NCBI GenBank assembly: GCA_965230945.1 | Contig: OZ246397.1 | Location: forward strand, 539,925-603,924 | DNA from: an uncultured Gammaproteobacteria bacterium | Lineage (GTDB): Bacteria > Patescibacteriota > Microgenomatia > PFEM01 > JAPLYW01 | Length of the DNA stretch: 64,000 bases | Direction of reading: 5' to 3' | Shown: positions 10,618 through 31,057 of the stretch, one piece after another | How positions within the stretch are numbered: position 1 is the first letter of the stretch | Layout of the letters: each line of letters starts with the position of its first letter | Position numbers and translations under genes: made by a program | Notes under the pieces: generated by a model | Databases searched by the model: none | Told to the model about the DNA's origin: nothing | What the model saw: only the letters and a program-made list of their open reading frames with translations

Positions 10618-11664
10618 ATGTTAAATAGACTTCATGATATTGACTCGGCAAAATACTTAAAATATTCTTTATTTCTTAGTCAAGTGGAAAAGGATCTCGT
10701 AGAAGAATTTTTAGAGTGGCTTCCGGATGAAATTGTTGACTGTCATACACACTGTGGTCTTTCAGAGCACGTAAAAGAGATTGATAATGAAATATATCAT
10801 CAAATGATAAGTACATTTCAAGGATTTAGTTTTGAGAATTCACACAGGGTTGAAAAGATTTTTTTTCGAAATAAAAATCTCAGATGTTTGAGATTTCCCT
10901 TCCCTTTTAGGGGAATAGATATAAAAGCGGCAAATGATTATCTGTTAAATAAGGTGAAAAGCCCTGACAAAGTGGCACTTTGCGGAATTCCCGAAGATAT
11001 AGAATATACAAATTCAATATTGAGAACAGGCAAATTTAGTGCTCTTAAAATGTATCATCAGCAGTTTAACTCACCCTCGAAACATATTTACGAATATTTC
11101 CCTCCAAAAATTCTGGAAGCTGCTGAAAAAGAAGGAGTTCCCATAATTCTGCATCTGCCAAGAATGATTACGCTGTGCAAAGACGAACTTTTTGATCTGA
11201 TCTATGATTTTCCCGGCTTAAAAATTTCTTTGGCCCATTTGGGACTACCACACCTAGTTGTACCTACTTTAGAGGAAACTTATAGAGAAGTTGCACAGTA
11301 TTCTAATATTAATATGGATACAGCTATGATTCCGTCAAAAGACGTTCTAACGATGGCATTAAGGGCTTTTGGTCCAAGAAGAATAATGTTCGGATCAGAT
11401 GAACCAATAAATCTTATAAGAGCTGTTGTTTACCAAAATCCAATATTGGGTCAAAGGTTGATTACTGAGTATAATTATCATTGGGTAAACAAAGAGGAGC
11501 ATGAGACATATAAACACCTTGCTAAAGGAGCTACCCACATGCATTGGTCTGCAGTTCAGGCAATAAAAGACGCGATAGAAAATCTATATCCCATAAAACA
11601 ACAATCTGAAGTAAAAAATGATATTTTTAACAATAATGCGGTTAAATTTTTTAATTTTGACTAG
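10618..11664 (+). CDS. Amidohydrolase-2 family (TIM-barrel metal-dependent hydrolase), function unknown
   Basis: N-terminal DCHTHCG metal-binding HxH and a later HLPRM...SLAHLG His; AT-rich; convergent with the aspS operon. Confidence 0.5.
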   Translation: MLNRLHDIDSAKYLKYSLFLSQVEKDLVEEFLEWLPDEIVDCHTHCGLSEHVKEIDNEIYHQMISTFQGFSFENSHRVEKIFFRNKNLRCLRFPFPFRGIDIKAANDYLLNKVKSPDKVALCGIPEDIEYTNSILRTGKFSALKMYHQQFNSPSKHIYEYFPPKILEAAEKEGVPIILHLPRMITLCKDELFDLIYDFPGLKISLAHLGLPHLVVPTLEETYREVAQYSNINMDTAMIPSKDVLTMALRAFGPRRIMFGSDEPINLIRAVVYQNPILGQRLITEYNYHWVNKEEHETYKHLAKGATHMHWSAVQAIKDAIENLYPIKQQSEVKNDIFNNNAVKFFNFD

Positions 11665-11717: not shown

Positions 11718-13097
11718 TTATTTTATTTTCTTAAGATTGAGGACCTTTAGAGATTTAGTGGATATTTTTGAAGGTGCTCCCATTAGTAAATCACGGCCTT
11801 CACCTGTTTTCGGAAAAGCAATTACCTCTCTGATATTTGTTTCGCCACATAGTACAGTAGCAAGACGATCGAAACCAAACGCTATTCCTCCATGTGGCGG
11901 TGGTGAAAATTTAAAGGCTTCGAGCATGTGTCCAAATCTGTTTTGCACTTCGCTCTCTGGTAAACCAAGAATCTCAAAAACTTTATGTTGTAAAACTCCA
12001 TCCGATATTCTTATGCTTCCTCCGGCAATTTCGTACCCATTCAAAACTAAATCGTAACCTAAGGCCTTTATTTTTAATAATTCTTTTTCGGGTTTGTTAA
12101 GATCCTCAACGCTTTTAATTTTCGGTTTAGTAAAAGGATGGTGTACAGCTGAAATTTTATTCTCTGTTGGGCCAATTTCAAACATTGGAGAATCTACTAC
12201 CCAACAAAAAGCCAACTCGTTGGGGTCATTGGGATTTTTTCGCGTATCAGGCTTGTCTGTATTGTATTTTTTCATAACGTAATCATAGGTATAAATTGGG
12301 AATTTACCAGCTGGAAGTTTTAAATAGGGGGTAACCTTTCTTATTACAGAAGAAACGGCTGTTTCAGCTAAATTCATAATGTCATCCTGTTCACAAAAAG
12401 ACATTTCAATATCGATCTGGGTAAATTCTGGTTGACGATCTTTTCGCAAATCTTCATCTCTGAAACACCTGGCTAGTTGGTAATATCGTTCTATTCCTGC
12501 TACCATCAAAAGTTGTTTAAATTGTTGAGGAGACTGAGGAAGAACGTATCCTTCGCCTGGATATAAACGGGATGGTACTATATACTCTCTAGCACCCTCG
12601 GGCGTTCCTTTTGTCAAAGCGGGCGTTTCAATTTCTATAAATCCATTTTCATCAAAGAAATTTCTAAAAGCGCTGGCCAGTTTGGCTCTCGTAATGATAT
12701 TTTTACGCATACGTTCAGTTCTTAAATCCAAATAACGGTACTTTAATCGCAATGACTCATCTACAGTTGAAGTGTTTTCATTTACATTAAAGGGAAGTGG
12801 AGCACATTTTGAGATAATCTTTATTGCTTCCGCTACTAATTCAATTTTTCCGAGTTCCTGCTCGGGGTTCACCGTTTGGGATGACCTTTTTTTAATGACC
12901 CCCTTTACCAAAATAAGATCCTCAAGCCCATAGTCCTGTACTAACAAATCTTTACCCAACACAACCTGGATACGTGCTGTCCGGTCGTATAAATCAATAA
13001 ATCCAACTTTAGAATGTTTTCTAAAACGGGAGATCCATCCTAGAGCTTTAACTTCTTTGCCAATATGAGTTTTCAGAGTTAAAATATCGATTTTCAT
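11718..13097 (-). CDS. aspS: Aspartyl-tRNA synthetase, short form (459 aa, no GAD insertion)
   Basis: N-terminal OB anticodon-binding domain, class II motif 2 FRDEDLRKDRQPEFTQIDIE, motif 3 GGIAFGFDRL. Confidence 0.85.
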   Translation of the reverse strand: MKIDILTLKTHIGKEVKALGWISRFRKHSKVGFIDLYDRTARIQVVLGKDLLVQDYGLEDLILVKGVIKKRSSQTVNPEQELGKIELVAEAIKIISKCAPLPFNVNENTSTVDESLRLKYRYLDLRTERMRKNIITRAKLASAFRNFFDENGFIEIETPALTKGTPEGAREYIVPSRLYPGEGYVLPQSPQQFKQLLMVAGIERYYQLARCFRDEDLRKDRQPEFTQIDIEMSFCEQDDIMNLAETAVSSVIRKVTPYLKLPAGKFPIYTYDYVMKKYNTDKPDTRKNPNDPNELAFCWVVDSPMFEIGPTENKISAVHHPFTKPKIKSVEDLNKPEKELLKIKALGYDLVLNGYEIAGGSIRISDGVLQHKVFEILGLPESEVQNRFGHMLEAFKFSPPPHGGIAFGFDRLATVLCGETNIREVIAFPKTGEGRDLLMGAPSKISTKSLKVLNLKKIK

Positions 13098-13102
13098 AGG
13101 AT

Positions 13103-15094
13103 TTAAGGTATTATGTCATATTCTGACCTCGGAAACAAAAAGAGGTCGCTTAAACTTCTTAAGTTAAGTAGTTTAACTAGAAATCTGTCGATACTCAAAC
13201 AGAAACCTCCATGTGGCCTTGGATTTTGAAACGCGTTCAAATAGAATTGATATTTCTTGTGTTTTAATCCTGTTCCTTTTATGCCCTTCAGAAGTTTTTC
13301 GTAATCAGTTTCACGAATAGCCCCCGATGCTATTTCCCAACCTTTATAAATAACATCGAAGCTTAATGTTTTATCCTCCCTATCATGCTTTACATAAAAC
13401 TTTTTTACAGAGCTGGGATATTTTATTATTGCGAACAAATCAGTTTTGTACTTATCTTTGACAATCTTACCAAGCATTTCCTCAAGATCATATCCAAAAT
13501 CTATCCCGTAAGCGACTTTCCCACTTGTGCCTTTGCTATTTAGAAGGCTAAGGGCATCTTCGTAGGTAATTGTTTTTATGGTCTTATTAACTACTTGAGA
13601 TTTTGATATTTCCTTATTTTCATATAGTTTTTTTGTAATCACATTCAATAGAGTTCCCAATAAAGCAATCAGTTGATTTAAATTTTCAACATTAGCCATT
13701 TCTATATCTAAGCCATATGCTTCGGATAAATGCCTAGGAGTTGGGTTTAGTTCTGCTCTCCAAAAAGGACCTAGCTCAAAAAGTTTGTCTATGCCAGAAA
13801 GTATTAAGATCTGTTTATATAATTGGTTTGATTGCCTTAAAAGCATTTTTCTTCCGTACCAATTTACTGTAAAAATTTCCTCGTCTGGATTGTCTCGTAC
13901 GGGGTCAGTTGACACTGCAGTTATTGTGGGAGTATGAATTTCAACAAAACCGAGATATAAAAGTGTCTTTCGAGTAATAAAATAGGCATCACTTTTAAGT
14001 TTAATATTTGGGATTTTGGATTTATAAATTTCGCTATTGATACGAAAGTTTTCGCGTCTGGCATTTTCTTTTAAACTATAGATCATAGCATCCACAGCTT
14101 TTGTTACAGATGTTGAGATAATATCTTTTGCTATAGAGATACTATTTTGCCTTAATTTCTTATTGTATTGTGAATATTCATTTATTGATTTTAGATCATA
14201 AATTTCGTAAAGATTTTTGACTAAAAGAGTATTTTGCGGTGTCCCTAAATCGTATATGAGACAGTATTTGATAGTGCTCAAAAAATCTAGTTGTTCTTTT
14301 TTGAATACATTCGGTGTGGCGAAAAAGATGATGATAGGTTTTACTTTCAAGTTTTTGATGGTATTTAGTCGAACTGCCTTCTTGGCTATTTTATCCTTGA
14401 CTAGTTTTTTTGCTTTATTAATAGTTCTATTTGCTATAACTAGATTTTTATACCCTTTTTCGTTGAGGACTTTACATAACAAACTCCCTGTCGAGCCAGC
14501 ACCAACAATTAGAATGTATGCATCTTGGGGAATCGATCTTTTAATCATCATATCTACGGCTGTTCTTTCCGCAGAGACATTTCCTTTACCAATGTCTGTT
14601 GCATTTCTAACAGCATTTGAGACCTTTCTCGCATTGTTAAAGATTGTTTTTAAAACGATTCCGGCCGTTTTATCATCCGAGGCAATACTTATCGCTTGAC
14701 GTACTTGACCCGTAACCTGATTATCTCCTAAAGTTACACTTTTAAGTCCGCAGGCGGTTTCAAATAAATGCTCAATTACCTTTTTGCCAGAATATTGACA
14801 GATATCGGATATCTTGAAGGAGTTTGGTTTTTGAGATTGCTTCTTCCATAAATTCGTTATTCCGTCCTTATTATCTTCCGCAGCCACATAGTAGATTTCC
14901 ACACAATTGCATTTACTTAGAATTACGCATTCATCCAATCGATATTCATTCTGGAGTTCTTTCGCAAAAGACCGGTGATTTTTAATTAAGTAGGTTTGTA
15001 AAGATTGAAGGTCTCCTGTACCCATTAATGCAGAAAGACAGTGAATCTTTTCTAGTATGTTTTTTGTAATTTTATTTTGGAGCACTAGTGGCAA
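13103..15094 (-). CDS. Fusion protein: glutamyl-tRNA-reductase (HemA)-like catalytic plus NADPH domain (about aa 1-330) joined to an Asp/Asn-tRNA-synthetase-type class IIb catalytic core (about aa 370-663). No anticodon-binding domain.
   Basis: N-terminal half aligns to GluTR by eye: ILSKCNCVEIY (TCNRTE active-site Cys, codon 14909-14911), LKSVTLGDNQVTGQVRQA, ARKVSNAVRNATDIGKGNVS, ILIVGAGSTGSLLCKVLNEKGYKNLVIANRT. C-terminal half carries class IIb aaRS motifs: QSNQLYKQ, FWRAELNPTPRHLSEAYGLDIEMA (motif 2), PHGGFCLSIDRF...LFLFPR (motif 3). TTG start at 15094, first ATG at codon 24. Confidence 0.8.
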   Translation of the reverse strand: MPLVLQNKITKNILEKIHCLSALMGTGDLQSLQTYLIKNHRSFAKELQNEYRLDECVILSKCNCVEIYYVAAEDNKDGITNLWKKQSQKPNSFKISDICQYSGKKVIEHLFETACGLKSVTLGDNQVTGQVRQAISIASDDKTAGIVLKTIFNNARKVSNAVRNATDIGKGNVSAERTAVDMMIKRSIPQDAYILIVGAGSTGSLLCKVLNEKGYKNLVIANRTINKAKKLVKDKIAKKAVRLNTIKNLKVKPIIIFFATPNVFKKEQLDFLSTIKYCLIYDLGTPQNTLLVKNLYEIYDLKSINEYSQYNKKLRQNSISIAKDIISTSVTKAVDAMIYSLKENARRENFRINSEIYKSKIPNIKLKSDAYFITRKTLLYLGFVEIHTPTITAVSTDPVRDNPDEEIFTVNWYGRKMLLRQSNQLYKQILILSGIDKLFELGPFWRAELNPTPRHLSEAYGLDIEMANVENLNQLIALLGTLLNVITKKLYENKEISKSQVVNKTIKTITYEDALSLLNSKGTSGKVAYGIDFGYDLEEMLGKIVKDKYKTDLFAIIKYPSSVKKFYVKHDREDKTLSFDVIYKGWEIASGAIRETDYEKLLKGIKGTGLKHKKYQFYLNAFQNPRPHGGFCLSIDRFLVKLLNLRSLSDLFLFPRSEYDIIP

Positions 15095-15118
15095 TATAGC
15101 AAAAAAACAGAGCTAAAA

Positions 15119-15144
15119 CAATTCAGGCTTCTTGAGGAAGTTTT
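15119..15144. repeat. 26-nt near-exact direct repeat (copy A: aATTCAGGCTTCTTGAGGAAGTTTT), 25 nt upstream of the fusion-gene start
   Basis: 25/26 identity with 16691-16716, which lies inside the rsmA N-terminal coding region. The minus-strand reading of copy A encodes NFLKKPEL followed by a stop. Confidence 0.7.
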
Positions 15145-15431
15145 AGATTTTGTGTATTTTATAGTATTTTGGTAAAATTTCCCTTATGAGTAAAAAGAAA
15201 GCTTTGAAAGAACGACCCCTTACTTAAGGAATTCAGAAAATATTTTGTTTATGTAAATAATTTGAGAAATAAATTGGAATTTGTGAAGGATCGACAAAAA
15301 AAGAGAGGGAGTAACCTTCGGACAAAACCTTAGGTGTGCCCTCTCATCGTGATAATAATATCATACTCCTTTTTGAGAATTTGTCAAGGTTTTTTCCTAT
15401 TTGAGCGTTAGCGAAAACAAGGTTTCCTTAT

Positions 15432-15462
15432 TTGACATTTATATCTTTGATGTTCTAAAAAT
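15432..15462 (+). promoter_or_regulatory. sigma70-like promoter candidate TTGACA-N18-TAAAAT facing the structured element
   Basis: TTGACA at 15432-15437 and an A/T-rich -10 at 15456-15462; the 11-mer TATTTGACATT also occurs at 16963-16973. Confidence 0.3.
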
Positions 15463-15476
15463 AGGCTCATATCTTT

Positions 15477-15581
15477 AAGGTGCGGAGGTAGAATACCCAA
15501 GGTTTGAATAGCTTTCAACCTTTAAGGTTGAAATGTTGTAACATCCTGCAACCAGTTTGATCGAAAGGACTGTAGCACCTT
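15477..15581. ncRNA. structured RNA element of unknown class in the 738-nt region between rsmA and the fusion/aspS operon
   Basis: Closing helix AAGGTGC(15477-15483)/GCACCTT(15575-15581) around a perfect 9-bp hairpin TTTCAACCT-tta-AGGTTGAAA (15513-15533). Confidence 0.3.
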
Positions 15582-15832
15582 CGAACAAGCAATTACATGA
15601 GGTAGGGAAGAAAGAGGCCTTAATACAATTTGTGATTGATAAAATCTATAAAAGAGCAAAAACTGAATTGATTACTTTAGAAACCTTCCGATCGCTTTTG
15701 ATTATGATTTCTATTGTTTGTGTTATAGCATATTTTGGAAGGAAAAACAAATTTTTAATCTAATTGCCTAACAGTTCTAAGTTGTGCTCCTTCGTAACTG
15801 GATGTTTCTGGGACATGTTTTTAGGTATCAAC

Positions 15833-16831
15833 TTAGGACACCTGGAAGGCATACCTGATGTTTTTCCAATCAGCCTGAATTCTAGTTCTATGAATTTTTT
15901 CTAATTTTGCTTGTTGTTTTTGGAGGTTTTTCTCTGCACCAATTGTTAGTTGCTTTTTGTGATTTGCTACTTCAACTAAAAAATATTTAAATAGCCCGAG
16001 CCATTGGTTAAACTTAATTTCTGTAGGGGTTGCTGATTGGCTAAAGTTTAAATCTTTGGCCAGCTTTTTAAATTGTTCTCTAGTAAAGATTTTTCTTAAA
16101 GCTTCTTTAAGTGTTGGTTGCCACTGGCTAAAGGTATAGGCGAGAAAGTCTTTATAGAGTTGACTATTTTTGGTATCCACCACTGACTCTTTTCTCTTTT
16201 GGAGCCGAAGTAAGACGGTATTGACGCCTGGGGGTGGTTGAAAATCTCCCCGTTTAAAATTATGGATAACTTTTGGTTCAAACCATGGTTTGATTAATAA
16301 AACAGACAAAGTTTCTTTACTAGTATAAGGGGAACCAGTAAATTTTTTGGCGGCTTCTTCCTGAACAATAAGATAGGTATCCTCAGGTGAATTTTCTGTA
16401 TTGACAAGTTTTTTTATTATGTCAGCCGTTATGTTGAACGGAATATTGGAAAAAACCTTATATTCTGTTTGGGGGAGTTTGTATTTTAGAAAATCTCCCT
16501 GATGAATTTTTATTTTAGGATTTTGGCCAAAACGATGTTTTAATTTTAAGAATAAGTCTTGGTCTTTTTCAATTGCGATTACTTTTTTACAGCGAAAGGC
16601 GAGTTGTTCGGTAATAATACCCCGACCTGGACCTACTTCATAGACTATATCTTTAGGGTCAATTGAAGATTTTTCCAAAAGATGTTGTACTAATTCAGGC
16701 TTCTTAAGGAAGTTTTGTGAATAAAGGATGCTTTTTCTTTCTGGATATTCTTTTTCAGACATACGCTTTTGCTTATGATATTTCATTGACTTAGGCATAA
16801 TGGCAGTTCCTAAGTATACCATTTTACTCAT
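15833..16831 (-). CDS. rsmA: rRNA adenine N6-dimethyltransferase (KsgA/RsmA family) with a C-terminal extension of about 60 aa
   Basis: YSQNFL, VYEVGPGRGIITEQL (SAM GxGxG), FSNIPFNIT; 332 aa against about 270 typical. Confidence 0.75.
   Translation of the reverse strand: MSKMVYLGTAIMPKSMKYHKQKRMSEKEYPERKSILYSQNFLKKPELVQHLLEKSSIDPKDIVYEVGPGRGIITEQLAFRCKKVIAIEKDQDLFLKLKHRFGQNPKIKIHQGDFLKYKLPQTEYKVFSNIPFNITADIIKKLVNTENSPEDTYLIVQEEAAKKFTGSPYTSKETLSVLLIKPWFEPKVIHNFKRGDFQPPPGVNTVLLRLQKRKESVVDTKNSQLYKDFLAYTFSQWQPTLKEALRKIFTREQFKKLAKDLNFSQSATPTEIKFNQWLGLFKYFLVEVANHKKQLTIGAEKNLQKQQAKLEKIHRTRIQADWKNIRYAFQVS
16691..16716. repeat. 26-nt repeat copy B (inside rsmA codons for NFLKKPEL)
   Basis: AATTCAGGCTTCTTAAGGAAGTTTT; 25/26 identity with 15119-15144. 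Confidence 0.7.
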
Positions 16832-16967
16832 TTTTTAGCGATAATTGATAATATTTATTTACTTGACAGAAAGGCTTGGAGAAGGGAAGCCTACAGATTC
16901 GATATTAACTATTTCTATGAGGGTTTATACAGCTATTGATTTTTTATTAAACAACAGTCTTCTCTAT

Positions 16968-17006
16968 TTGACATTACTGGATTTGGTGGTTTAAACTTGC
17001 TATAAT
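16968..17006 (+). promoter_or_regulatory. promoter candidate: TTGACA (16968-16973) plus extended -10 TGcTATAAT (16998-17006)
   Basis: Consensus hexamers 28 nt upstream of the 17034 start; a TGCTATA(A/C)T extended -10 recurs at 23901, 38731 and 20846. Confidence 0.35.
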
Positions 17007-17033
17007 TAGTCAAATTAATAATCTGCTTAGAAA

Positions 17034-18128
17034 ATGTCAGAATCAAAGATGCCAAAAGAAAAGGTAGAAATTGAATATTCAGGAACGAATCCTCTTATTA
17101 ATTCAGGAAAAGAGGCAATTGAAAATTACAAAAAAATAGCTGAGGAGAATAAGAAGGATGTTTCTGGAGAAGCTTACAAAAAGGTTCTCAGACAAACGGC
17201 AAGGATTCTCGCAACAACATTACCTCTTCCTCTTCTTACTGCTTGTGCCGCTTGTGAGAAACCACCGGTCGTTGAGGAACAGCAGCAGGAAGAAGGGAAA
17301 GGACAGGAGACAGTTCCTTCTGAAACAGCTGAAACAGAAAAGGAGACTGTTCAGGAAGAAACTCCTCCGGTGGTTGAAGAGACTCCTGAAAAAATTGAAT
17401 GGGAAGGGGTCACCATTTCCCCAGTAGAAGGCTTAAAGTTTGATAAGGGAGATTTCTATTTTATGGAAGGAAATGAATATGGCGGGATACCTGGAGAAAA
17501 AGCAGGAGTTTTGGTTAAAGATGGCTTAGAGGTTAATGGGAAAATGGAAAATGCCATTGGTTTAGATCCAATGGTAATTGAGTTTAAAGAAAAAGAGATA
17601 TTTAAGGAAACCAAAGAGCGTTTATTACCTATTCTTATTGACCTAACCAAGTCTAAGGACGTAAAACTACAGGAATTAAATGCAGCAGGAGCAGAAATTG
17701 GTAGAAAAGTTTTAGCTTTCAATGTTGCTATTGGGACGGAGTTTTTGTCACCTCTTTCTGGAAGTTGGGGTATGTTTAAACCCTTTCCGAATGTTGAAGA
17801 TAAATGCTTTTTTATTAATTGGGATATTGGAGTGGAAGGACAATTGGGTGGGTGGGATATCTATTTTAGAGATGCGGAAGTTTTGGCCAAAATGGAAAAA
17901 GAGGTATCAATTCTTAACCCTAAAGATACTAATAGACAGACTCTTATGGAAACAGAAGTCAAATTAGGCGACCCCTTAGGAAAAATTACAAGTAACACTC
18001 CCTTAGAAGAATTTTCCAAAAGTGGCTGGGGTGATTATCAAATTGTAGCTTTTCTTAAAAATAAAGATAGAATTATGGAAGTTGGTAGCGGAGCTGATGC
18101 TTGCAAGGTTTTTATTTTTAACCAATAA
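17034..18128 (+). CDS. hypothetical protein with a Glu/Pro/Thr-rich low-complexity linker
   Basis: 364 aa with an internal hydrophobic segment ending LLTACAAC (lipobox-like); the C-terminal globular domain has no recognisable motif. Confidence 0.45.
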   Translation: MSESKMPKEKVEIEYSGTNPLINSGKEAIENYKKIAEENKKDVSGEAYKKVLRQTARILATTLPLPLLTACAACEKPPVVEEQQQEEGKGQETVPSETAETEKETVQEETPPVVEETPEKIEWEGVTISPVEGLKFDKGDFYFMEGNEYGGIPGEKAGVLVKDGLEVNGKMENAIGLDPMVIEFKEKEIFKETKERLLPILIDLTKSKDVKLQELNAAGAEIGRKVLAFNVAIGTEFLSPLSGSWGMFKPFPNVEDKCFFINWDIGVEGQLGGWDIYFRDAEVLAKMEKEVSILNPKDTNRQTLMETEVKLGDPLGKITSNTPLEEFSKSGWGDYQIVAFLKNKDRIMEVGSGADACKVFIFNQ

Positions 18129-18189
18129 ATTTTCTCAATTACTCATATTGACAAATTTTGATTTGAAGAGATAAACTAAATTAGGGATA

Positions 18190-18819
18190 ATGTCTAAAAA
18201 AATTAAAGTTTTTCTGTCCTTAATATCCTTAGTTTCTGTCGTTGCAACTGTGGGGATATTTTTTGATTTTGGTTTTAAAAAATTATTCTTAAAATCAAAA
18301 ATTTTTCCGTCCGAAAATAAAAAAACGGTTATTTCAAATATAACCCCAACCCCTTCTCCCGTCTTGGAATTTGTAGAATTACTTCATCTCCCTGAAGGTG
18401 CTTTAGATTTAACTTTACCTGTTGAAAGAAGTTATTTCGAAGCCATGAAAGAAAATACTCCAAAATATCCTGATGCTATTTCATTTAATCTTAATGAAAA
18501 TGAGGAAGTTAAAGCTATTTTTGATGGAAAAGTTGTGAGTGTTCAATATGTTGATAAGGAAACTATTGGGGATCAACCTAATGATTTTCTTACAATTTGG
18601 ATTGAAAGCAGAGATGAAATGCTAGTAGCTAGTTATCTTGTTGCAGGAGAATTTTTATTAAAAGAAAATGAGGAAATAAGATCCGGAGAAAGCTTAGCTA
18701 GAATTGGGAAAGGGATTGTTCCCTTTAGCAATGATGCTAATTTTAGTTTAACTATTATGAAATTGGAAGATGATGAATATAAAACAATAGCTTTAGATAA
18801 AGGAATGTTTTTACGATGA
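18190..18819 (+). CDS. hypothetical secreted protein
   Basis: N-terminal signal/TM; stop overlaps the start of the next gene (ATGA). Confidence 0.45.
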   Translation: MSKKIKVFLSLISLVSVVATVGIFFDFGFKKLFLKSKIFPSENKKTVISNITPTPSPVLEFVELLHLPEGALDLTLPVERSYFEAMKENTPKYPDAISFNLNENEEVKAIFDGKVVSVQYVDKETIGDQPNDFLTIWIESRDEMLVASYLVAGEFLLKENEEIRSGESLARIGKGIVPFSNDANFSLTIMKLEDDEYKTIALDKGMFLR

Positions 18820-25343: not shown

Positions 25344-26792
25344 ATGAATGAAAAAGAGAAGGTTAATTTTTCTTCTAAAGAATTAGGAGTTAAGGTGGAA
25401 TCAGATAAAATTTCTGAGTGGTATAATAAAATAATTAAAGAGGCTGATTTGATTGATCAAGGCCCAGCTAAAGGGACGATGGTTTTTCGTCCTTATGGTT
25501 ATGCTCTTTGGAAAGGAGTTCAAAAGAGTCTTGGGTTTAAAATAGAAAAGAATGGGGTTGAAGATGCTTATTTTCCTGCTATAATTCCAGAAAAACTTCT
25601 AGTTAAAGAAAAAGATCATATTGAAGGTTTTTCTCCGGAATTTTTACGTGTTCGAGGTAGAAGTGGAGAAATTGGAGTATTGAGGCCAACTTCCGAAGCT
25701 GTAATGTATCCATTATTTAAGAAGTGGATTCAATCTTACAGAGATTTACCCCTTAAAGTAAACCAGTGGTGTAATGTTTTTAGAGATGAGTTAAGAACGT
25801 ATGCTTTAATACGCACTTCTGAATTTCTTTGGCAGGAGGGTCATTGCGTGTATGCTTCAGCAAAGGAAAACGAAGAAGCAGTGATGGATTTTTTAAATAT
25901 GTATAAGAATTTTTTTCGTAATACTCTTGCTGTATCTCCTATTTTTGGGAAAAAAAGCGAAAAGGAAAAATTTGCAGGAGCTTTATATACTACAACTGGC
26001 GAAGCAGTTTTACCAGGAGGGAAAGCTCTTCAAGTTTGTACTTCTCATAATTTAGGGACAAATTTTGCAGAAGCCTTTGATATACAATTTTTAGGTAAAG
26101 ATGGCAAACAACATCACCCATATCAGACAAGTTGGGGTTTAAGCTGGCGGGTTATTGCCGCGATGATTATGAGTCACGGTGATAAAAAAGGGCTTATTTT
26201 TCCACCAGAAATGGCCCCTACGCAAGTAATAATTATACCTATTAAAGGTTCATCTGATGAAGTAGTTATGGAAGCAGCAAAATCTATAAAAGAAAGATTG
26301 TCTGATTTGAGAGTTGATATAGATAAGTCAGATGCAAGGCCAGGAGCTCGTTATAATTATTATGAACTTAGAGGAGTACCTTTAAGGATTGAAATTGGCG
26401 CCCGTGATATTCATAATAATCAGATAATAGTTGCAAATCGATTAACTGGTGATAAAAAAGCTCTGCCTTTAGGTGGTCAGCTTAGAAAAGGCATACAGTT
26501 GTCATTAACATCAATACAAGAGTCTTTATTAAAGAAATCTGAAAGTTTAGTTAAAGAAAGTACCAAAGATGTAAAGACATGGGAAGAATTTAAAGAGATT
26601 CTTAATAAAAATGGAGGTTTTCTGAGAACTTATCACTGTGGAAATAGAGATTGTGAACAACAAATTCAGGATGAAACAAAAGCAACATTAAGATGTATCC
26701 CTTTCGGTTATGAAAAATCAGAGGGAAAATGTGTTAGATGCGGAAAACCATCTAATTATGGTCAAAAAGTACTTTTTGCTAAGGCCTATTAG
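25344..26792 (+). CDS. proS: Prolyl-tRNA synthetase, archaeal/eukaryal-type (class IIa) with a C-terminal zinc-binding domain
   Basis: Motif 1 region FRPYGYALW, motif 2 FRDELRTYALIRTSEF, motif 3 GLSWRVIAAMIMSHGDKKG, anticodon-binding domain, C-terminal CGNRDC...CVRCGK. Confidence 0.85.
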   Translation: MNEKEKVNFSSKELGVKVESDKISEWYNKIIKEADLIDQGPAKGTMVFRPYGYALWKGVQKSLGFKIEKNGVEDAYFPAIIPEKLLVKEKDHIEGFSPEFLRVRGRSGEIGVLRPTSEAVMYPLFKKWIQSYRDLPLKVNQWCNVFRDELRTYALIRTSEFLWQEGHCVYASAKENEEAVMDFLNMYKNFFRNTLAVSPIFGKKSEKEKFAGALYTTTGEAVLPGGKALQVCTSHNLGTNFAEAFDIQFLGKDGKQHHPYQTSWGLSWRVIAAMIMSHGDKKGLIFPPEMAPTQVIIIPIKGSSDEVVMEAAKSIKERLSDLRVDIDKSDARPGARYNYYELRGVPLRIEIGARDIHNNQIIVANRLTGDKKALPLGGQLRKGIQLSLTSIQESLLKKSESLVKESTKDVKTWEEFKEILNKNGGFLRTYHCGNRDCEQQIQDETKATLRCIPFGYEKSEGKCVRCGKPSNYGQKVLFAKAY

Positions 26793-26800
26793 TATTTTCT

Positions 26801-27571
26801 ATGTTTATGGAATGTAGTAGTAAATTAACATTGTCAAATATTCCTTCCGATTATCCACTTCCTAACCTTTATTATTTCTCTTCCAAATTTTTAACAGAAA
26901 TTCGTAAACAGGTGACAGGTGCTGTTTCAATTTTAAATCAAAATGGTTTTGAAGAATGTCATTTCCCTTTTTTAGTTCCGAGAAGCCTTTTATTGTATTA
27001 TAAGAACTTAATATCTTTGGAAGATTTTATAAAAGTATATTCAGGGAAAGATAAGCGATCATATGCTTATTTGAGACCAGATGGTGTGTTTAGTCAAGGG
27101 ATCACTTTAGCAAAAGAAATGATTAAGAGTTATCGTAATTTACCCTTGAAATTATTCGAAGTATCCCCAAGCTATAAAAGATTAAAGAACAAAACCAAAG
27201 GGAATGTCTTTACTTCTCCAGAAGAGTCTTTTTCTATACAAGGTGGAGTATTTATTGAGGATAAAGACGAAAATGAATTTCTTCAGACGATTATTTCTAG
27301 AATTCTAAATAACTTCTCAATACCGTATATAGCCAAAAATAATAAATTATGTAAATATGGGGGAATAAATTATAGCACTCTTTTTAGTGACAATGAGATA
27401 AATCTCGCTAAAATTTGTGTTTTTGATCAAGAAGTTACTCGGGAAGCAAACATTTATTTTTTTAATAAAGAGGGAAGGAGATCTTTTCCATACATGTATA
27501 GCTTTAGCTTATCTCAAAACATTTTTTTAATTAGTCTTTTAAAAAATGAAAGAATAGGATTAGAAAAGTGA
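26801..27571 (+). CDS. ProRS-like paralog truncated to the N-terminal catalytic region (256 aa); no anticodon-binding or Zn domain
   Basis: YAYLRPDGVFSQGITLAKEMIKSYRNLPLKLFEVSPSYK parallels the proS segment [37 protein letters not shown]; very AT-rich. Confidence 0.55.
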   Translation: MFMECSSKLTLSNIPSDYPLPNLYYFSSKFLTEIRKQVTGAVSILNQNGFEECHFPFLVPRSLLLYYKNLISLEDFIKVYSGKDKRSYAYLRPDGVFSQGITLAKEMIKSYRNLPLKLFEVSPSYKRLKNKTKGNVFTSPEESFSIQGGVFIEDKDENEFLQTIISRILNNFSIPYIAKNNKLCKYGGINYSTLFSDNEINLAKICVFDQEVTREANIYFFNKEGRRSFPYMYSFSLSQNIFLISLLKNERIGLEK

Positions 27572-28995
27572 ATAACATATCAGAAGAGAAATTGATAGAT
27601 TGGCTGAAGTTTTATGTTAACTTTGGTGATATAGTAAATGATGATTTTCCTACTAAAGGAGCTTGTTCTTGGTACCCTTATGGATATTCTTTAATGAAGA
27701 ATATCCTTCATTTAGCATCAAATATTTTAATTAAGAAAGCTAAGTTTAAAGAGATTGTTTTACCATCTTTTGTTCATGGTGAAGATTTCATGAAAGAATG
27801 CAAAAATATAAAAGATTTTAGTGAACGTGTATATTGGTCGCCATTATATAGAAAAGACGATCTACATGTAGTAACTCCTACAATTGAAGCACAGTTAGGT
27901 GCTCTTTATAATAAATGGCTACAAGCAAATAAAAAACTTCCGTTTAAGTATTTTACGATAAGGGGAGTAGGTCGTTATGAAACTGGAAGGACAATTCCTT
28001 TATGGAAGGAACGTAACGTTTGGCCTTTTTTTGAAGGGTTAACGGTTCATAGTTCTTCATCTGATTTTTTAGCTACCATAAAACAACAAATAAATTTTAT
28101 GGAAGTTTTTTTTGAAGAACTTGGAATTCCTGTTTTAATCCTTGAAAGACCTAAGATTAATTCTCGTTTGTGTGAATATTCTGAGCGAAGAATAGAAGCT
28201 GTTACGATAACTAAAGATAAGAGGGTTGTAATACTAGCAAATATATATGATTTAGGAGAAATATTTAGTAGAGTATACGATATCTTTTATATCGTTAAGA
28301 ATACTAAATATTATGCCTTAACTTCTGCGATAGGTTTATCTGGTAGGGTGTTGGCTACCTTGTTGACTATAAATGGCGATAAAGATGGTTTTATTCTTTC
28401 TCCAATGATTGCTCCAATTAAGTTAGCGATATTACCAATTTATAATAAACCAGCTTTTACTAAGCTAGCAAAAAAGATAGAAGTTTATTTAAGTAAAAAA
28501 GGTATAGTTTCAAAGAATTTTCCGGCTGTGTCTTCGTTGGGAGAGAGGAGAAGAAAAGTAACAGCAATGGGGATACCTTTTTTAATAGAGATTGGATCAA
28601 ATGAAATAAAAAGCTCGTCAGTATTAATAAAAGAACGTGTTCTTACTCATAATTCTACAGAATGTGAAATAAAAGAAATACCTTATATTATTAAGAAACG
28701 AGGCAAAATAATGAATAAGTTTATTAAGCAGAAAGCATTTAAAGAATTCAATTTACTTACTAAGTCTGTTAAGTTAAAGAAAAATTTTCTTTATTGCCTT
28801 AAAGATGAGATTTTAACAGAATCATTTTTTTGTAATAATCCAAATTGTTATAATAAAATGGCAGAATTGTCAAATAGAGAAATAATTGGTCGTAATTATA
28901 AAGCTAAAATAAATAAAAAATCTAAATGTATAGTTTGTGGAAAAACAGCATCTCAAGGTATTTATTTTGGTATTAAATGGAAGGGAGAAAAGTGA
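27568..28995 (+). CDS. Full-length divergent ProRS-family paralog (475 aa: catalytic, anticodon-binding and Zn-ribbon domains)
   Basis: PTKGACSWYPYGYSLMK, VTPTIEAQLGALYNKWLQANKKLPFKYFTIRGVGRYETGR (motif 2 altered), GLSGRVLATLLTINGDKDG (motif 3), SPMIAPIKLAILPI, C-terminal CNNPNC...CIVCGK. Confidence 0.6.
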   Translation: MNNISEEKLIDWLKFYVNFGDIVNDDFPTKGACSWYPYGYSLMKNILHLASNILIKKAKFKEIVLPSFVHGEDFMKECKNIKDFSERVYWSPLYRKDDLHVVTPTIEAQLGALYNKWLQANKKLPFKYFTIRGVGRYETGRTIPLWKERNVWPFFEGLTVHSSSSDFLATIKQQINFMEVFFEELGIPVLILERPKINSRLCEYSERRIEAVTITKDKRVVILANIYDLGEIFSRVYDIFYIVKNTKYYALTSAIGLSGRVLATLLTINGDKDGFILSPMIAPIKLAILPIYNKPAFTKLAKKIEVYLSKKGIVSKNFPAVSSLGERRRKVTAMGIPFLIEIGSNEIKSSSVLIKERVLTHNSTECEIKEIPYIIKKRGKIMNKFIKQKAFKEFNLLTKSVKLKKNFLYCLKDEILTESFFCNNPNCYNKMAELSNREIIGRNYKAKINKKSKCIVCGKTASQGIYFGIKWKGEK

Positions 28996-28997
28996 TT

Positions 28998-29912
28998 ATG
29001 GATTTTTTAAAAAAGGGAGACACTATTGGGGTGGTTGCTCCTGGCTCGCCAGTGCCTAAAAAAAATATAAAAAAGGGAGTTAATGTTCTTAGTAATATGG
29101 GCTTTAATGTAAAATTAGGTAAGCATATTTTTAGTATTACTGGCTATACGGCAGGAATTGCAAAAGATCGTGCTAATGATATTAATAGGTTTTTTTCTGA
29201 TTCTCAGATTAAAGCGATAATTGCTGCTCGTGGTGGTTATAATTGCAATCAGATCTTACCATTTTTAGATTATGGACTTATTAAAAAAAACCCAAAGATT
29301 TTCTTAGGTCTTAGTGATGTAACTGCAGTGTTAAATGCTATTGTTTTGAAATCGAATGTTATAACATTTCATGGCCCAGTTCTTTTAATGATAGGGGGTG
29401 GAAGAGATGGTAAAGTATTCTCTAAGTATTCCAAAGAAAATTTTGAAAAAATACTTATGAATGAAAAGAAAAGGTTTATTAATGTAGTTAATGCCTTTGA
29501 TAATTGGATTGTTTTAAATAAAGGAAAAGCTGTAGGCAAACTTTTTGGCGGGAACCTCTCTTCTTTAATAAGTATTATTGGTACATCATATGAACCAAAT
29601 TGGAAAAATGCGATTCTAATGTGGGAAACGCTGGAAGAAAAATTAGAAATGATAGATCAGATGTTAACACATCTGAGATTAGCTGGAATTTTTGATAAAA
29701 TTAATGGTATGATGGTAGGTAAGTTTGTTGATACTAAACAGGGAAGAGATACAGAGATTATTAAAATGATTTTAGAACAATGCAGGGGATATGATTTTCC
29801 GATAATTTATGGGGTTGATTTTGGCCATACTAACGAAAATTTAATATTACCTATAGGTGGGGAAATTAGTTTTAATACAGAAGAAGAATTTCTTAAGATT
29901 ATTAAATATTAA
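28998..29912 (+). CDS. Peptidase S66 family (LD-carboxypeptidase LdcA / microcin-C immunity MccF-like serine hydrolase)
   Basis: IGVVAPGSPV, nucleophile motif LGLSDVTAV, C-terminal GVDFGHT...PIGGE His motif. An alternative ATG at 28977 overlaps the upstream stop. Confidence 0.7.
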   Translation: MDFLKKGDTIGVVAPGSPVPKKNIKKGVNVLSNMGFNVKLGKHIFSITGYTAGIAKDRANDINRFFSDSQIKAIIAARGGYNCNQILPFLDYGLIKKNPKIFLGLSDVTAVLNAIVLKSNVITFHGPVLLMIGGGRDGKVFSKYSKENFEKILMNEKKRFINVVNAFDNWIVLNKGKAVGKLFGGNLSSLISIIGTSYEPNWKNAILMWETLEEKLEMIDQMLTHLRLAGIFDKINGMMVGKFVDTKQGRDTEIIKMILEQCRGYDFPIIYGVDFGHTNENLILPIGGEISFNTEEEFLKIIKY

Positions 29913-29923
29913 ATTAGAAATTT

Positions 29924-31057
29924 ATGGGGCCTTATCAGGCGAAGCCAGGCGGTGTTATTTCTTATTTAGGCAATAAGATTTATCCTCCAGTTGAGGATGT
30001 ATTAGCTGTTTCTTGGCCACCAAAAGATTTAGTAGACAGAGTTGGATCTATTTATCGAGATAAGAAGTGGTACCACCTGCATAAAATTGATGCCTCAATT
30101 TTTACTGCTACGACACAATTCTTCCAAAGTATAAATGCTGATTGGGTTAATCTACCTCTTACCACTATGATGATTTCTTCTCCTGGTGAAGTTTATGCTG
30201 GACAAAGACTAAATTACACAACAGATACTTTACCTATGGAAATTCCTAATTGGTTTCATACTGGTAATAGAGTGTTTCTTTCAGAATCTTCACAGTTTTA
30301 TCTAGAATTAAGATTAATAATTGATAAGCTGGATAAAGTTTTTTCGATTTATAATTCTTTTAGGAAGGAAAAAGCTGATGCTACTCATTTATCAGAATTC
30401 CAACATGTTGAGTTTGAAGGACATGTTAATTTCAAAAATAACATAAATACTTTTATCAATTTGATTAATTATATTTTAAATTTTCTTTTACAAAATAACG
30501 AAGATAATTTATCTTTTTTTCTTGAAGATCAAGATATAAATGAATTATCTCGAAGCATGAAAAAGATTTTTAAGGTTCCGTTTGTCGAAATTTTAAAAGT
30601 TCTTTTTAAGGAAACTGGAAATAATAAATATAAAGAATTTTCAATGAAGAATTTTGGGTCGTGGGAAGAAATTTTTATTACTCAGATTTACGGCGGTAAT
30701 GTGTTAGCTCTTAATTTCCCTATGTTGCAGATCCCTTTTTATCATGAAATAAGTAAGAAAAAAGTTGGGGGTGTTCCTGTAGCTGAAAATGCAGATTTAA
30801 TACTTCAAGGATATAGAGAAACTGTTGGGAGTGGATTAAGAATTACAGATCCAAAGGCTTTGGCAGAAAAAGCAAAAATTTTTAATCTACCTATAGATGA
30901 CTATAAACCTTACCTTGAGACACGTAAGATGAAGAAATATAAAACATCGGCTGGTTTCGGTTTAGGTTGGCAAAGATTTACGCAATGGATTTTAAAATTA
31001 CCATATATTTGGGAAACAACCCCAACTCCTCGTGGACACACAAAACCAAGGCTTTAA
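29924..31057 (+). CDS. Standalone class IIb aaRS catalytic core (AsnA / AsnRS-AspRS-like); no anticodon-binding domain
   Basis: Motif 2 FSIYNSFRKEKADATHLSEFQHVEFE, motif 3 SAGFGLGWQRF, C-terminal IWETTPTPR (compare AsnRS IRDVIPFPR). Confidence 0.6.
   Translation: MGPYQAKPGGVISYLGNKIYPPVEDVLAVSWPPKDLVDRVGSIYRDKKWYHLHKIDASIFTATTQFFQSINADWVNLPLTTMMISSPGEVYAGQRLNYTTDTLPMEIPNWFHTGNRVFLSESSQFYLELRLIIDKLDKVFSIYNSFRKEKADATHLSEFQHVEFEGHVNFKNNINTFINLINYILNFLLQNNEDNLSFFLEDQDINELSRSMKKIFKVPFVEILKVLFKETGNNKYKEFSMKNFGSWEEIFITQIYGGNVLALNFPMLQIPFYHEISKKKVGGVPVAENADLILQGYRETVGSGLRITDPKALAEKAKIFNLPIDDYKPYLETRKMKKYKTSAGFGLGWQRFTQWILKLPYIWETTPTPRGHTKPRL

Follow-up and report, generated by a model that had tools for sequence, protein, structure and literature searches.

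A single open reading frame (ORF) in the window (the whole stretch of 64,000 nucleotides analyzed here) joins a glutamyl-tRNA reductase (GluTR)-like module to an aspartyl-tRNA synthetase (AspRS)-type catalytic core. On balance, we favor the view that its product is bifunctional and probably dimeric, an NADPH-dependent reductase that activates aspartate, i.e., an aspartate counterpart of GluTR with its own aminoacylating module. The preliminary description of this DNA knew of no described enzyme with this architecture, and our search of the literature on aspartyl-tRNA reductases, GluTR-like proteins (including those of Patescibacteria/CPR) and AspRS paralogs likewise found no description of one. 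The fusion most likely converts activated aspartate into an amino aldehyde, a reaction without an earlier description; GluTR has been the sole enzyme known to reduce an aminoacyl-tRNA.

Architecture and Distribution of the Fusion

The fusion ORF (13103..15094, minus strand) encodes 663 aa, from a TTG start to a TAA stop at 13103-13105, in a continuous reading frame with 0 internal stops. Its start, TTG at 15094 or GTG at 15085, is uncertain by a few residues; the NCBI call, 640 aa from M24, loses a block that homologs conserve. From the N- to the C-terminus, the protein comprises a GluTR-type catalytic domain (residues 40-166; 14597..14977, minus strand; PF05201, GlutR_N, E 1.5e-26, aligned to 4n7r and 1gpj), an NADPH-binding Rossmann domain with GAGSTG and NRT motifs (residues 190-302; 14189..14527, minus strand; PF01488, Shikimate_DH, E 2e-13), long helices equivalent to the GluTR spinal helix in the AF2 model and Foldseek comparison (residues 301-352; 14039..14194, minus strand), and a class IIb aminoacyl-tRNA synthetase core of the archaeal AspRS type (residues 363-657; 13124..14008, minus strand; PF00152, tRNA-synt_2, E 1.4e-53). 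The architecture is exactly as first claimed, with the separate profile matches that had been expected on the two halves and with the quoted motifs in place: KCNC (61-64), LGDNQVTGQV (122-131), GAGSTG (198-203) and NRT (222-224) in the reductase, and FWRAE..RHLSE..LDIEM (444-466), PHGGFCLSIDRF (627-638) and the FPR tail in the synthetase. The proposed loss of the OB-fold anticodon-binding domain also holds, as a Pfam scan of the fusion returns no PF01336 (OB fold); nor does it return PF00745, the GluTR dimerization domain, which true GluTR matches carry. Both halves fall below the family cut-offs of their parents: hemA TIGR01035 gives 162.2 bits over model positions 27-328 of 416 (equivalog cut-off 209.55), and PRK05159, the archaeal-type aspartate--tRNA(Asn) ligase, 237.4 bits over positions 137-438 of 438 (cut-off 353).

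Clustered at 50% identity, the full-length fusion forms a family of about 35 clusters, which has no name in databases, is confined to the ultra-small Patescibacteria and is drawn from numerous independent assemblies and sources; the recurrence sought in the preliminary description is thus found. Between 16 and 37 full-length members, at 31-74% identity, were compared, and the three-domain order is common to all of them. Since the same order is kept across diverged members, the fusion is under selection. As a trivial explanation, an error of assembly or sequencing could have merged two genes, or the ORF could be a pseudogene in decay; the frameshift in the core of one lineage (L005/L006/L015) could be cited in favor. 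This explanation was tested and rejected, and we give it practically no credence: the frame of the window ORF is unbroken, the architecture recurs in some 35 clusters from many independent assemblies, the domain junction is predicted by AF2 with confidence as an uninterrupted helix, and the catalytic residues are conserved. The earlier concern that the ORF might be two genes separated by a frameshift or misread stop is settled by the same observations.

The two halves exist as separate genes in L041, where an ATGA stop/start overlap falls at the domain boundary. A domain split in the L005/L006/L015 lineage was considered and rejected; the frameshift there lies inside the flipping loop of the synthetase core, not at the domain boundary.

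The Reductase Half

GluTR is built of three domains arranged along a spinal helix (PMC4726326) and acts by an established mechanism in which a thioester is formed and then reduced by hydride transfer (PMC7242693). A sequence search of the PDB with the fusion finds the GluTRs of Arabidopsis thaliana (4n7r, 83 bits) and Methanopyrus kandleri (1gpj, 70 bits). The N-terminal half is a true GluTR homolog with an aligned catalytic Cys, not the unrelated Rossmann dehydrogenase that would have undone the original reading.

Residue counts from an alignment of 37 family members with 15 GluTRs reveal which parts of the active site have been kept. C62, the predicted thioester nucleophile, and its neighbor N63 are invariant in both groups (37/37 and 15/15), and S119, Q126, Q130, GxGxxG and N-R-T are likewise retained from GluTR family-wide, with G198, G200, N222 and R223 conserved in the NADPH domain. 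The surrounding positions are changed. K61-C62-N63-C64 (14903..14914, minus strand) replaces the T-C-N-R of GluTR: position 61 is K in 37/37 members vs T in 15/15 GluTRs, and position 64 is C, A, S or G in 37/37 members, never the R found in 15/15 GluTRs. The GluTR D at position 118 becomes K/H/R. In the LGDNQVTGQV block (residues 122-131; 14702..14731, minus strand), where Q126 and Q130 are kept, D124 stands for the usual GluTR Glu (D in 37/37 members vs E in 11/15 GluTRs). R177 (14564..14566, minus strand), an S, Y or L in GluTR, is a family-specific invariant Arg of the catalytic domain (37/37). In the M. kandleri structure, the TCNR Arg is the ligand of the Glu side-chain carboxylate. Read from this alignment, the Glu-specific pocket is remodeled in every fusion member, through loss of R64, the changes T61K, E124D and D118K/H/R, and the new R177.

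The fusion thus shares with GluTR (EC 1.2.1.70) a homologous catalytic domain whose xCNx motif holds the nucleophilic Cys, the Ser/Gln block that binds the amino group, the NADPH Rossmann domain and the spinal helix, and by analogy is expected to run the same thioester-then-hydride chemistry. Unlike GluTR, it lacks the TCNR Arg and the PRD-motif Arg, carries a synthetase core in place of the C-terminal dimerization domain, scores below the hemA equivalog cut-off, has no tetrapyrrole gene context, and has Asp rather than Glu as the predicted substrate. The initial statement that every conserved block of GluTR is reproduced was therefore too strong: both Arg residues and the entire dimerization domain are absent.

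These differences bear on an alternative in which the fusion is still a glutamyl-tRNA reductase that serves tetrapyrrole synthesis and the synthetase core is a dimerizing, tRNA-binding scaffold. The N-terminal half has GluTR as its closest family, and in two clade B loci, L011 and L013, tRNA-Glu genes precede the fusion by about 200 nt. These genes are weak evidence, however, because they have their own terminators and are missing from the sister loci L010 and L016. Elsewhere, a dedicated tRNA gene beside the operon is seen neither in the window nor at most loci; upstream of the fusion, Rfam gives no match to a T-box, a riboswitch or any other leader RNA even at E<=1; and a promoter and hairpin at 15295-15387 are not conserved in relatives. 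We consider the glutamyl-tRNA reductase alternative highly improbable: the TCNR Arg is missing in 37/37 members and further pocket positions are altered, the hemA cut-off is missed (162 vs 209.55 bits), no hemL-, hemB- or hemC-like gene is found among the scanned window ORFs or at the loci with listed genes, and a plain scaffold would not preserve every Asp- and ATP-binding residue. Heme synthesis is not known from Patescibacteria.

The Synthetase Half

The class IIb assignment made from the sequence is confirmed by the PF00152 match and by the presence of motifs 1-3. In the PDB sequence search, the core is nearest to Thermococcus kodakarensis AspRS (3nel, 167 bits), vs 102 bits to AsnRS and 50 bits to 3p8t, a tRNA-independent archaeal asparagine synthetase. 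Residues were counted in 35 family members and 27 archaeal-type AspRSs. Motif-1 P389, motif-2 R446/E448/R454/H455/E458, and motif-3 H628-G-G and R637 are fully or nearly fully kept, the class II motif residues P389, R446 and R637 being conserved in 32-35 of 35 members; so are the Asp-binding residues Q421/S422/Q424/K427/Q428/D463/E465/R594, with counts of 30/35 for K427, 32/35 for Q428, 30/35 for D463, 34/35 for E465 and 35/35 for R594. Motif 2 and the aspartate-binding strand form one segment, FWRAELNPTPRHLSEAYGLDIEM (13697..13765, minus strand), that holds R446, E448, R454, H455, E458, D463 and E465, and motif 3 lies at 13181..13216 (minus strand; R637 in 35/35). The sequence LRQSNQLYKQ (13811..13840, minus strand) corresponds to the AspRS aspartate-binding motif QSPQxxKQ and has AspRS-type K427/Q428, with R420 and N423 as new residues; the AsnRS-like neighbors of the fusion have FYLE at this motif, with L/E in place of K427/Q428. 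In the flipping-loop region, TDPVRDNPDEEIF (13871..13909, minus strand), alignment places D397 at the AspRS Glu and reveals a family-specific insertion of 5-6 residues; model confidence is low here (pLDDT, residues 390-420).

Compared to archaeal/eukaryal-type AspRS (3nel/1b8a), the fusion core is about 33-40% identical and retains motifs 1-3 along with every residue that binds Asp or ATP. It differs in lacking the OB-fold anticodon-binding domain, in the Glu-to-Asp change and insertion of its flipping loop, in the family-specific R420, N423, W412 and W445, and in being joined to a reductase. AspRS-like cores without the anticodon-binding domain are known from AsnA/AS-AR, which activate aspartate without tRNA (PMC9437257). 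The fusion core resembles asparagine synthetase A (AS-A)/AS-AR in being an AspRS/AsnRS-type core devoid of that domain; by contrast, its scores are far lower (3p8t, 50 bits; NCBIfam PRK06462, 102 bits vs a cut-off of 368), and its partner is a thiol/NADPH reductase, whereas AS-A transfers to ammonia.

Predicted Structure

In the AF2 model, helices 301-317, 319-352 and 354-380 follow one another and run into the motif-1 helix of the synthetase, and Foldseek aligns 378 columns of the model with 1gpj and 308 columns with 3nel. The pTM of the model is only 0.50, so that inter-domain geometry is unreliable, and the motif-2 and flipping loops are its low-confidence regions. The synthetase core takes the place of the GluTR dimerization domain and probably brings about dimerization via class II motif 1.

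Gene Neighborhood

The fusion is followed by a co-operonic gene (11718..13097, minus strand) for a complete AspRS of 459 aa, bacterial in type and without the GAD insertion (PRK00476, 585 bits), which begins 5 nt past the fusion stop codon as read from the junction sequence of the window. A complete AspRS directly adjoins the fusion in the window and in L002, L003, L004, L005, L035, L037 and L038; in L008 it lies upstream with an SDR gene in between, and in L001 and L036 the neighboring AspRS is of the unrelated archaeal type. The fusion gene also clusters with AsnRS-like genes.

An aldehyde reductase adjoins the fusion in five loci: in L002, L008, L035 and L038 it is a YdfG-like SDR, and L001 has an Fe-ADH that is not homologous to the SDR. 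The nearest solved relatives of the SDR are aldehyde-reducing: YdfG, YMR226C, sulfoacetaldehyde reductase and clavaldehyde dehydrogenase. The 64-kb window itself holds no SDR or Fe-ADH homolog, and in the subclade L009-L014 and L016 no AspRS, SDR or Amidohydro_2 gene is found near the fusion, which has only a convergent MBL-fold hydrolase beside it; both observations count against the module as proposed.

The third recurrent neighbor, convergent to the fusion in the window (10618..11664, plus strand), encodes a TIM-barrel metal-dependent hydrolase of 348 aa (Amidohydro_2; PF04909). Related genes lie near the fusion in L002, L003, L035, L036 and L038, and L008 and L001 have divergent versions; the proteins found beside the fusion fall into three lineages that are mutually very divergent. 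An AF2 model of very high confidence (pLDDT 94.7) has only remote Foldseek matches (TM about 0.5, identity <=16%) to decarboxylases, LigY and cog3618 lactonases, and NCBIfam, PDB sequence search and AF2 with Foldseek give this neighbor no specific function. The Amidohydro_2 family is far commoner than the fusion in Patescibacteria and also present where the fusion is absent, which counts against a role with the fusion.

The company of AspRS and AsnRS-like genes could also suit a non-reductive protein, in which the GluTR-like domain would be an esterase or sensor of Asp-tRNA (e.g., mischarged Asp-tRNAAsn) or the whole a regulatory synthetase paralog. GluTR hydrolyzes its own substrate when NADPH is absent, a precedent for such an activity. 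We regard this possibility as improbable, given that the family as a whole conserves the GxGxxG and NRT motifs for NADPH binding together with the ATP- and Asp-binding residues, and that the recurrent aldehyde-reductase neighbor would be left without a role.

Proposed Reaction

As an Asp-specific reductase, the fusion would act in five steps. The C-terminal core would bind L-Asp and ATP to make α-aspartyl-AMP, as suggested by the catalytic and Asp-binding residues of AspRS, which are fully conserved. Next, the fusion core or the adjoining complete AspRS would attach the aspartyl group as an ester to the 3’ end of tRNAAsp; three considerations point to this ester, namely that the acceptor end of tRNA is where both parent families act, that the AspRS gene is a conserved neighbor, and that the two active sites lie at opposite ends of the spinal helix. 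Cys62 would attack the ester, releasing the tRNA and forming an aspartyl-thioester, which NADPH would reduce to an amino aldehyde; here we rely on the established mechanism of GluTR and on conservation of the Cys, Asn, Ser, Gln and NADPH motifs. The product would most likely be L-aspartate 1-semialdehyde (3-amino-4-oxobutanoate). In the most speculative step, the YdfG-like SDR or Fe-ADH would convert it into 3-amino-4-hydroxybutanoate and the Amidohydro_2 protein would act next. We can name no known metabolic use of 3-amino-4-hydroxybutanoate. Reduction of the α- rather than the β-carboxyl is most likely, as argued from ancestry alone. The original suggestion, reduction of an activated aspartyl or asparaginyl group, is strengthened by a pocket remodeled away from Glu and by the place of the gene in a conserved module, beside genes for AspRS and an aldehyde reductase, and the AspRS-type K427/Q428 would narrow it to Asp.

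The enzyme may instead be a carboxylate reductase that does not use tRNA, passing aspartyl-AMP (activated at the α-carboxyl, or at the β-carboxyl as in asparagine synthetase A) directly to Cys62 for reduction by NADPH to aspartate semialdehyde. In the β case, the product would be L-aspartate-4-semialdehyde (ASA), from which the neighboring reductase would make homoserine in a two-gene bypass of aspartokinase, aspartate semialdehyde dehydrogenase (ASD) and homoserine dehydrogenase; homoserine or ASA would be an obviously useful product. The absence of an anticodon-binding domain favors this route and counts against tRNA as the carrier, since AsnA/AS-AR, the best-known cores of this kind, are tRNA-independent (PMC9437257). 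The new invariant basic residues, K61, K/H/R118 and R177 in the reductase pocket and R420 in the synthetase pocket, could bind phosphate or a second carboxylate, and Fe-ADH and YdfG-type enzymes do reduce small acidic semialdehydes. Even so, a route without tRNA seems unlikely to us. The core is much nearer to true AspRS than to AS-AR (167 vs 50 bits) and keeps the AspRS residue set that activates the α-carboxyl. A spinal helix of about 50 residues separates the modules; with the aminoacyl-AMP buried, as in class II synthetases, and the Cys in a pocket, direct attack would therefore need a large rearrangement. Finally, the conserved complete AspRS next door, whichever its type, would be left without a role.

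More tentatively, the fusion could be a reductase of Asp-tRNAAsp that carries its own charging module; it would then represent a second kind of aminoacyl-tRNA reductase and open a previously unknown tRNA-dependent small-molecule pathway in Patescibacteria. Such a pathway would lead from Asp via aspartate 1-semialdehyde to 3-amino-4-hydroxybutanoate or its lactone, with tRNA used as an acyl carrier outside translation.

Relation to Known Systems and Implications

Synthetases fused to enzymes that consume aminoacyl-tRNA are known: ErdS (AspRS-DUF2156), which is Asp-specific, and LysX (LysRS-MprF) (PMC7334510, PMC9437257). The fusion resembles them in logic only, in that a synthetase module is covalently joined to a module whose family employs aminoacyl-tRNA for purposes other than translation. 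In ErdS and LysX the synthetase is complete, anticodon-binding domain included, and the amino acid is passed on to a lipid, whereas the fusion pairs a truncated synthetase with a reductase; the Pfam scan finds no DUF2156/LPG_synthase_C domain in it. Reduction of an activated carboxyl to an aldehyde by NADPH via a thioester is also the chemistry of ASD, CAR and Lys2, which start from an acyl-phosphate or pass from an acyl-AMP to the thioester. These enzymes are functional analogs of the fusion without homology to it: the Pfam scan detects no ANL adenylation domain, phosphopantetheinyl carrier, SDR-type R domain or GAPDH-like ASD fold.

GluTR is a rare case of a charged tRNA feeding small-molecule metabolism (PMC7242693). 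If the proposed activity is true, GluTR chemistry would have been reused for a second amino acid, and AspRS paralogs would gain a further function beside AS-A and ErdS (PMC9437257). If instead the β-carboxyl or adenylate variant is true, the module would amount to a new, compact way of making aspartate semialdehyde or homoserine. An Asp-specific reductase would reveal an unrecognized metabolic capability in organisms thought to be nearly devoid of biosynthesis.

Domain Architecture of the Fusion

The fusion is encoded by an uninterrupted ORF of 663 codons on the minus strand (13103..15094), running from a TTG start to a TAA stop. The start codon is uncertain within a few residues; the NCBI gene model of 640 aa, which begins at M24, drops a block conserved in homologues. 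Pfam assigns residues 40-166 to GlutR_N (E 1.5e-26), 190-302 to a Shikimate_DH-type NADPH domain (E 2e-13) and 363-657 to tRNA-synt_2 (E 1.4e-53), and detects neither an OB-fold anticodon domain nor a GluTR dimerisation domain. In NCBIfam, the fusion scores 162 bits against the hemA model TIGR01035 (positions 27-328 of 416) and 237 bits against archaeal-type aspartate--tRNA(Asn) ligase PRK05159 (positions 137-438 of 438), both below the equivalog cut-off. Among solved structures, the C-terminal half is nearest to Thermococcus kodakarensis AspRS (3nel, 167 bits), with AsnRS at 102 bits and archaeal asparagine synthetase 3p8t at 50 bits, while the N-terminal half matches GluTRs only (4n7r, 83 bits; 1gpj, 70 bits). 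These searches bear out the preliminary description of a single continuous frame joining a GluTR-like half to a class IIb core that lacks the OB fold, and every motif quoted there was found in its place.

The domain plan of GluTR includes a spinal helix (PMC4726326). In the AlphaFold2 model of the fusion (mean pLDDT 81.7, pTM 0.50; flipping loop and motif-2 loop of low confidence), long helices predicted at residues 301-352 run on into the motif-1 helix of the synthetase, and Foldseek matches the model to 3nel over 308 columns and to M. kandleri GluTR 1gpj over 378, with no PDB chain spanning both halves. The helix continuity and these matches place the predicted synthetase core where the spinal helix ends, in the position that the dimerisation domain takes in GluTR.

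Conserved and Altered Residues

When 35 fusion members are compared with 27 archaeal-type AspRSs, the synthetase half retains motif-1 Pro389, motif-2 R446, E448, R454, H455 and E458, motif-3 H628-G-G and R637, and the aspartate-binding residues Q421, S422, Q424, K427, Q428, D463, E465 and R594. K427 and Q428 represent the AspRS state; AsnRS-like neighbours of the fusion at two other loci, L001 and L036, have L and E at these positions. Fusion-specific features are a flipping loop in which Glu is replaced by Asp397 and 5-6 residues are inserted, and core residues R420, N423, W412 and W445.

In the reductase half, Cys62, Asn63, Ser119, Gln130 and both GxGxxG glycines are invariant in 37 fusions and 15 true GluTRs alike; Gln126 occurs in every fusion and in 13/15 GluTRs. 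The N-R-T motif is largely kept (Asn in 31/37 fusions, Arg in 34/37). The substrate side differs: all 37 fusions replace Thr by Lys61 and Glu by Asp124, 35 of the 37 replace Asp at position 118 by K, H or R, the PRD-motif Arg of GluTR is gone, and Arg177 is new and invariant. The TCNR Arg, present in 15/15 GluTRs, occurs in 0/37 fusions, which have C, A, S or G instead; in the M. kandleri GluTR structure, this Arg reportedly binds the side-chain carboxylate of glutamate. Such a pattern would be expected if the reductase were active but had a substrate other than glutamate. A persisting Glu-tRNA reductase, sharing the invariant positions with GluTR but not the TCNR Arg, is unlikely, as is a non-reductive deacylase or sensor in a protein that keeps the NADPH-binding GxGxxG and N-R-T motifs.

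Distribution and Gene-Structure Variants

A word-indexed search through 5.8 billion proteins finds the same architecture in 19 of them, at 32-100% identity, and profile searching across 1.84 billion cluster representatives adds about 30 that are full-length, plus fragments. When one genome per GTDB species is scanned, the full fusion appears at ten loci: eight labelled Patescibacteria, including Ca. Falkowbacteria GW2011_GWF2_43_32, one labelled just "bacterium" and one on a 3.3-kb contig binned as Lutibacter. Another member, from Microgenomates GW2011_GWC1_37_8, has been in a public genome since 2015; members are annotated at source as "hypothetical protein" or "aspartyl-tRNA synthetase." To judge from these searches, the fusion is a recurrent family and not an accident, and an artefact is unlikely. 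Interrupted forms do exist. At L005 (5960-6030), and identically at L006 and L015, a frameshift in the flipping loop of the core splits the fusion into ORFs of 406 and 245 aa, not a natural domain split but a pseudogene or else a sequencing error. By contrast, L041 (248-1959), on a low-coverage contig of 1.96 kb, appears to be a natural split form, in which a 337-aa GluTR-like gene with the KCNC motif and a separate synthetase-core gene overlap by ATGA at the domain boundary.

Related cores occur in other contexts. A stand-alone core of ~320 aa without an anticodon domain lies 4.5 kb from the full fusion at L008 (4530-5504, minus strand); P0059, P0064, P0065, P0067 and P0074 from the profile search are similar, and about half of the stand-alone cores share the P-V-R/K flipping-loop insertion of the fusion. 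Also found are a GatB-AspRS fusion (P0144, 949 aa), a complete AspRS with a further core of the fusion-family type after it (P0066, 914 aa) and a RING-finger-AspRS (P0102, 694 aa). The window itself holds a second synthetase-paralogue cluster on the plus strand (25344-31057): ProRS (25344-26792), an ORF of 256 aa that faintly resembles ProRS (26801-27571), a divergent ProRS-like protein (27568-28995; 208 bits against a cut-off of 437), an LD-carboxypeptidase (28977-29912) and a class IIb core of 377 aa, AsnRS/asparagine-synthetase-A-like, that lacks an anticodon domain (29924-31057).

Genomic Neighborhood

In the window, the stop codon of the fusion is separated by 5 nt from the ATG of a complete bacterial-type AspRS (11718-13097, minus strand; 459 aa, 585 bits to PRK00476), with no terminator-like site between the two genes. 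This AspRS aligns to PRK00476 in two pieces and is shorter than the typical bacterial enzyme (~590 aa), and therefore lacks the GAD insertion domain; the short form adjoins the fusion at seven other loci too. Across the 20 loci surveyed, a complete AspRS lies directly beside the fusion in the window and at L002, L003, L004, L005, L035, L037 and L038, and one gene away at L008. At L001 and L036, the neighboring AspRS is of an unrelated archaeal type, which argues that the fusion is linked to AspRS function and not to one gene lineage. The fusion-aspS pair is one of few minus-strand units in the window, where genes lie mostly on the plus strand and, of the 2-kb intervals, just two have a negative GC skew, one of them 12001-14000, the rest being positive.

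A YdfG-like SDR (207-233 bits to the YdfG model) adjoins the fusion at L002, L008, L035 and L038. Among solved structures it comes nearest to YdfG (3asu), yeast YMR226C, sulfoacetaldehyde reductase and clavaldehyde dehydrogenase, all of them aldehyde/primary-alcohol enzymes. At L001, the same position is occupied by an Fe-ADH that is not homologous to the SDR and best fits models of lactaldehyde, sulfoacetaldehyde and 4-hydroxybutyrate enzymes. An Amidohydro_2 gene, convergent and next after AspRS in the window, lies beside the fusion at eight loci in three mutually very divergent lineages; its high-confidence model has only remote likeness to solved structures, and in Patescibacteria the family reaches far beyond the fusion and is found without it too. 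At L039 (4070-10386), a Nomurabacteria-type locus without the fusion, Amidohydro_2 lies near radical-SAM, class IIb synthetase and LPG_synthase_C genes, the last an aminoacyl-tRNA transferase of the DUF2156 type. At L002, an intein with a LAGLIDADG endonuclease interrupts a DnaB helicase gene (15942-18548).

AspRS, aldehyde reductase and Amidohydro_2 are all absent near the fusion in clade B (L009-L014, L016), whose sole conserved neighbor is a convergent MBL-fold hydrolase. In this clade, a tRNA-Glu gene with its own terminator hairpin lies ~200 nt upstream of the fusion at L011 (9634-9706, anticodon CTC) and L013 (9538-9610, anticodon TTC) and is absent upstream at L010 and L016; L010, L011 and L013 share an AT-rich leader motif, GTTAA(G/T)ATAATTAACA..AGTTATTTAAAAAT, right before the start codon. 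In the window, the 738-nt spacer upstream of the fusion (15095-15832) contains, at 15295-15387 on the minus strand, a near-consensus sigma-70-like promoter, TTGACA-16-TATGAT (11/12), followed ~15 nt on by a stem-loop, GAGAGGG...CCCTCTC, and a T-run. This element, which could be a ~55-nt small RNA or an attenuating leader of the fusion operon, matches nothing in Rfam, and nothing similar to it precedes the homologous genes.

Relation to Known Enzymes

The reductase half resembles GluTR in sequence, yet the fusion lacks HemA's pocket Arg, dimerisation domain and curated score and, in the loci surveyed, its pathway context. The core is likewise similar to AspRS, yet has no anticodon-binding domain and scores under the curated cut-off. 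Synthetases fused to a consumer of their aminoacyl-tRNA are exemplified by ErdS (AspRS-DUF2156) and LysX (PMC7334510, PMC9437257). These are complete synthetases and transferases, and only the pairing of synthetase and consumer is shared. A review of AspRS paralogues tabulates only AS-A/AS-AR, asparagine synthetase A and its archaeal form, and ErdS (PMC9437257). In the full-text literature, with most subscription papers outside reach, no description of this architecture or of an aspartyl-tRNA reductase was found, in agreement with the preliminary description.

Proposed Reaction

Homology, architecture, residue conservation and synteny are established for the fusion, and from them we infer a reaction sequence. 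The core would form alpha-aspartyl-AMP. Either the core or the neighboring AspRS would charge tRNAAsp, and the aspartyl ester on its 3' end would be delivered to the reductase. There, by the chemistry of GluTR (PMC7242693), Cys62 would form a thioester and NADPH would reduce it to an amino aldehyde. The SDR or Fe-ADH would turn the aldehyde into an alcohol, with the Amidohydro_2 hydrolase acting at a later stage. The reduction of an activated Asp or Asn group proposed earlier is supported and can probably be narrowed to aspartate, given the AspRS-state K427/Q428 and the remodelled GluTR pocket.

A tRNA is favored as the acyl carrier because both parent families work on the acceptor end, the two active sites would lie at opposite ends of the spinal helix, and no neighbor recurs as consistently as a complete AspRS, whichever its evolutionary type. 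The main rival would dispense with tRNA and reduce the adenylate directly; the beta-carboxyl may be the target, with ordinary aspartate semialdehyde and homoserine as products. Chemically attractive and of more obvious use to the cell, this route leaves both the linkage to AspRS and the AspRS-like pocket without explanation. Reduction of the alpha-carboxyl is favored, since AspRS and GluTR both act there and the core resembles AspRS much more than it does AS-AR (3p8t), a tRNA-independent enzyme that activates the beta-carboxyl. By the alpha route, the aldehyde would be L-aspartate 1-semialdehyde and the alcohol 3-amino-4-hydroxybutanoate. The latter is a one-carbon homologue of serine, and YdfG-family enzymes are known to have serine dehydrogenase activity. 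The fusion is best classified, as far as its sequence indicates, as a GluTR-type reductase probably re-targeted to aspartate and joined to an AspRS core.
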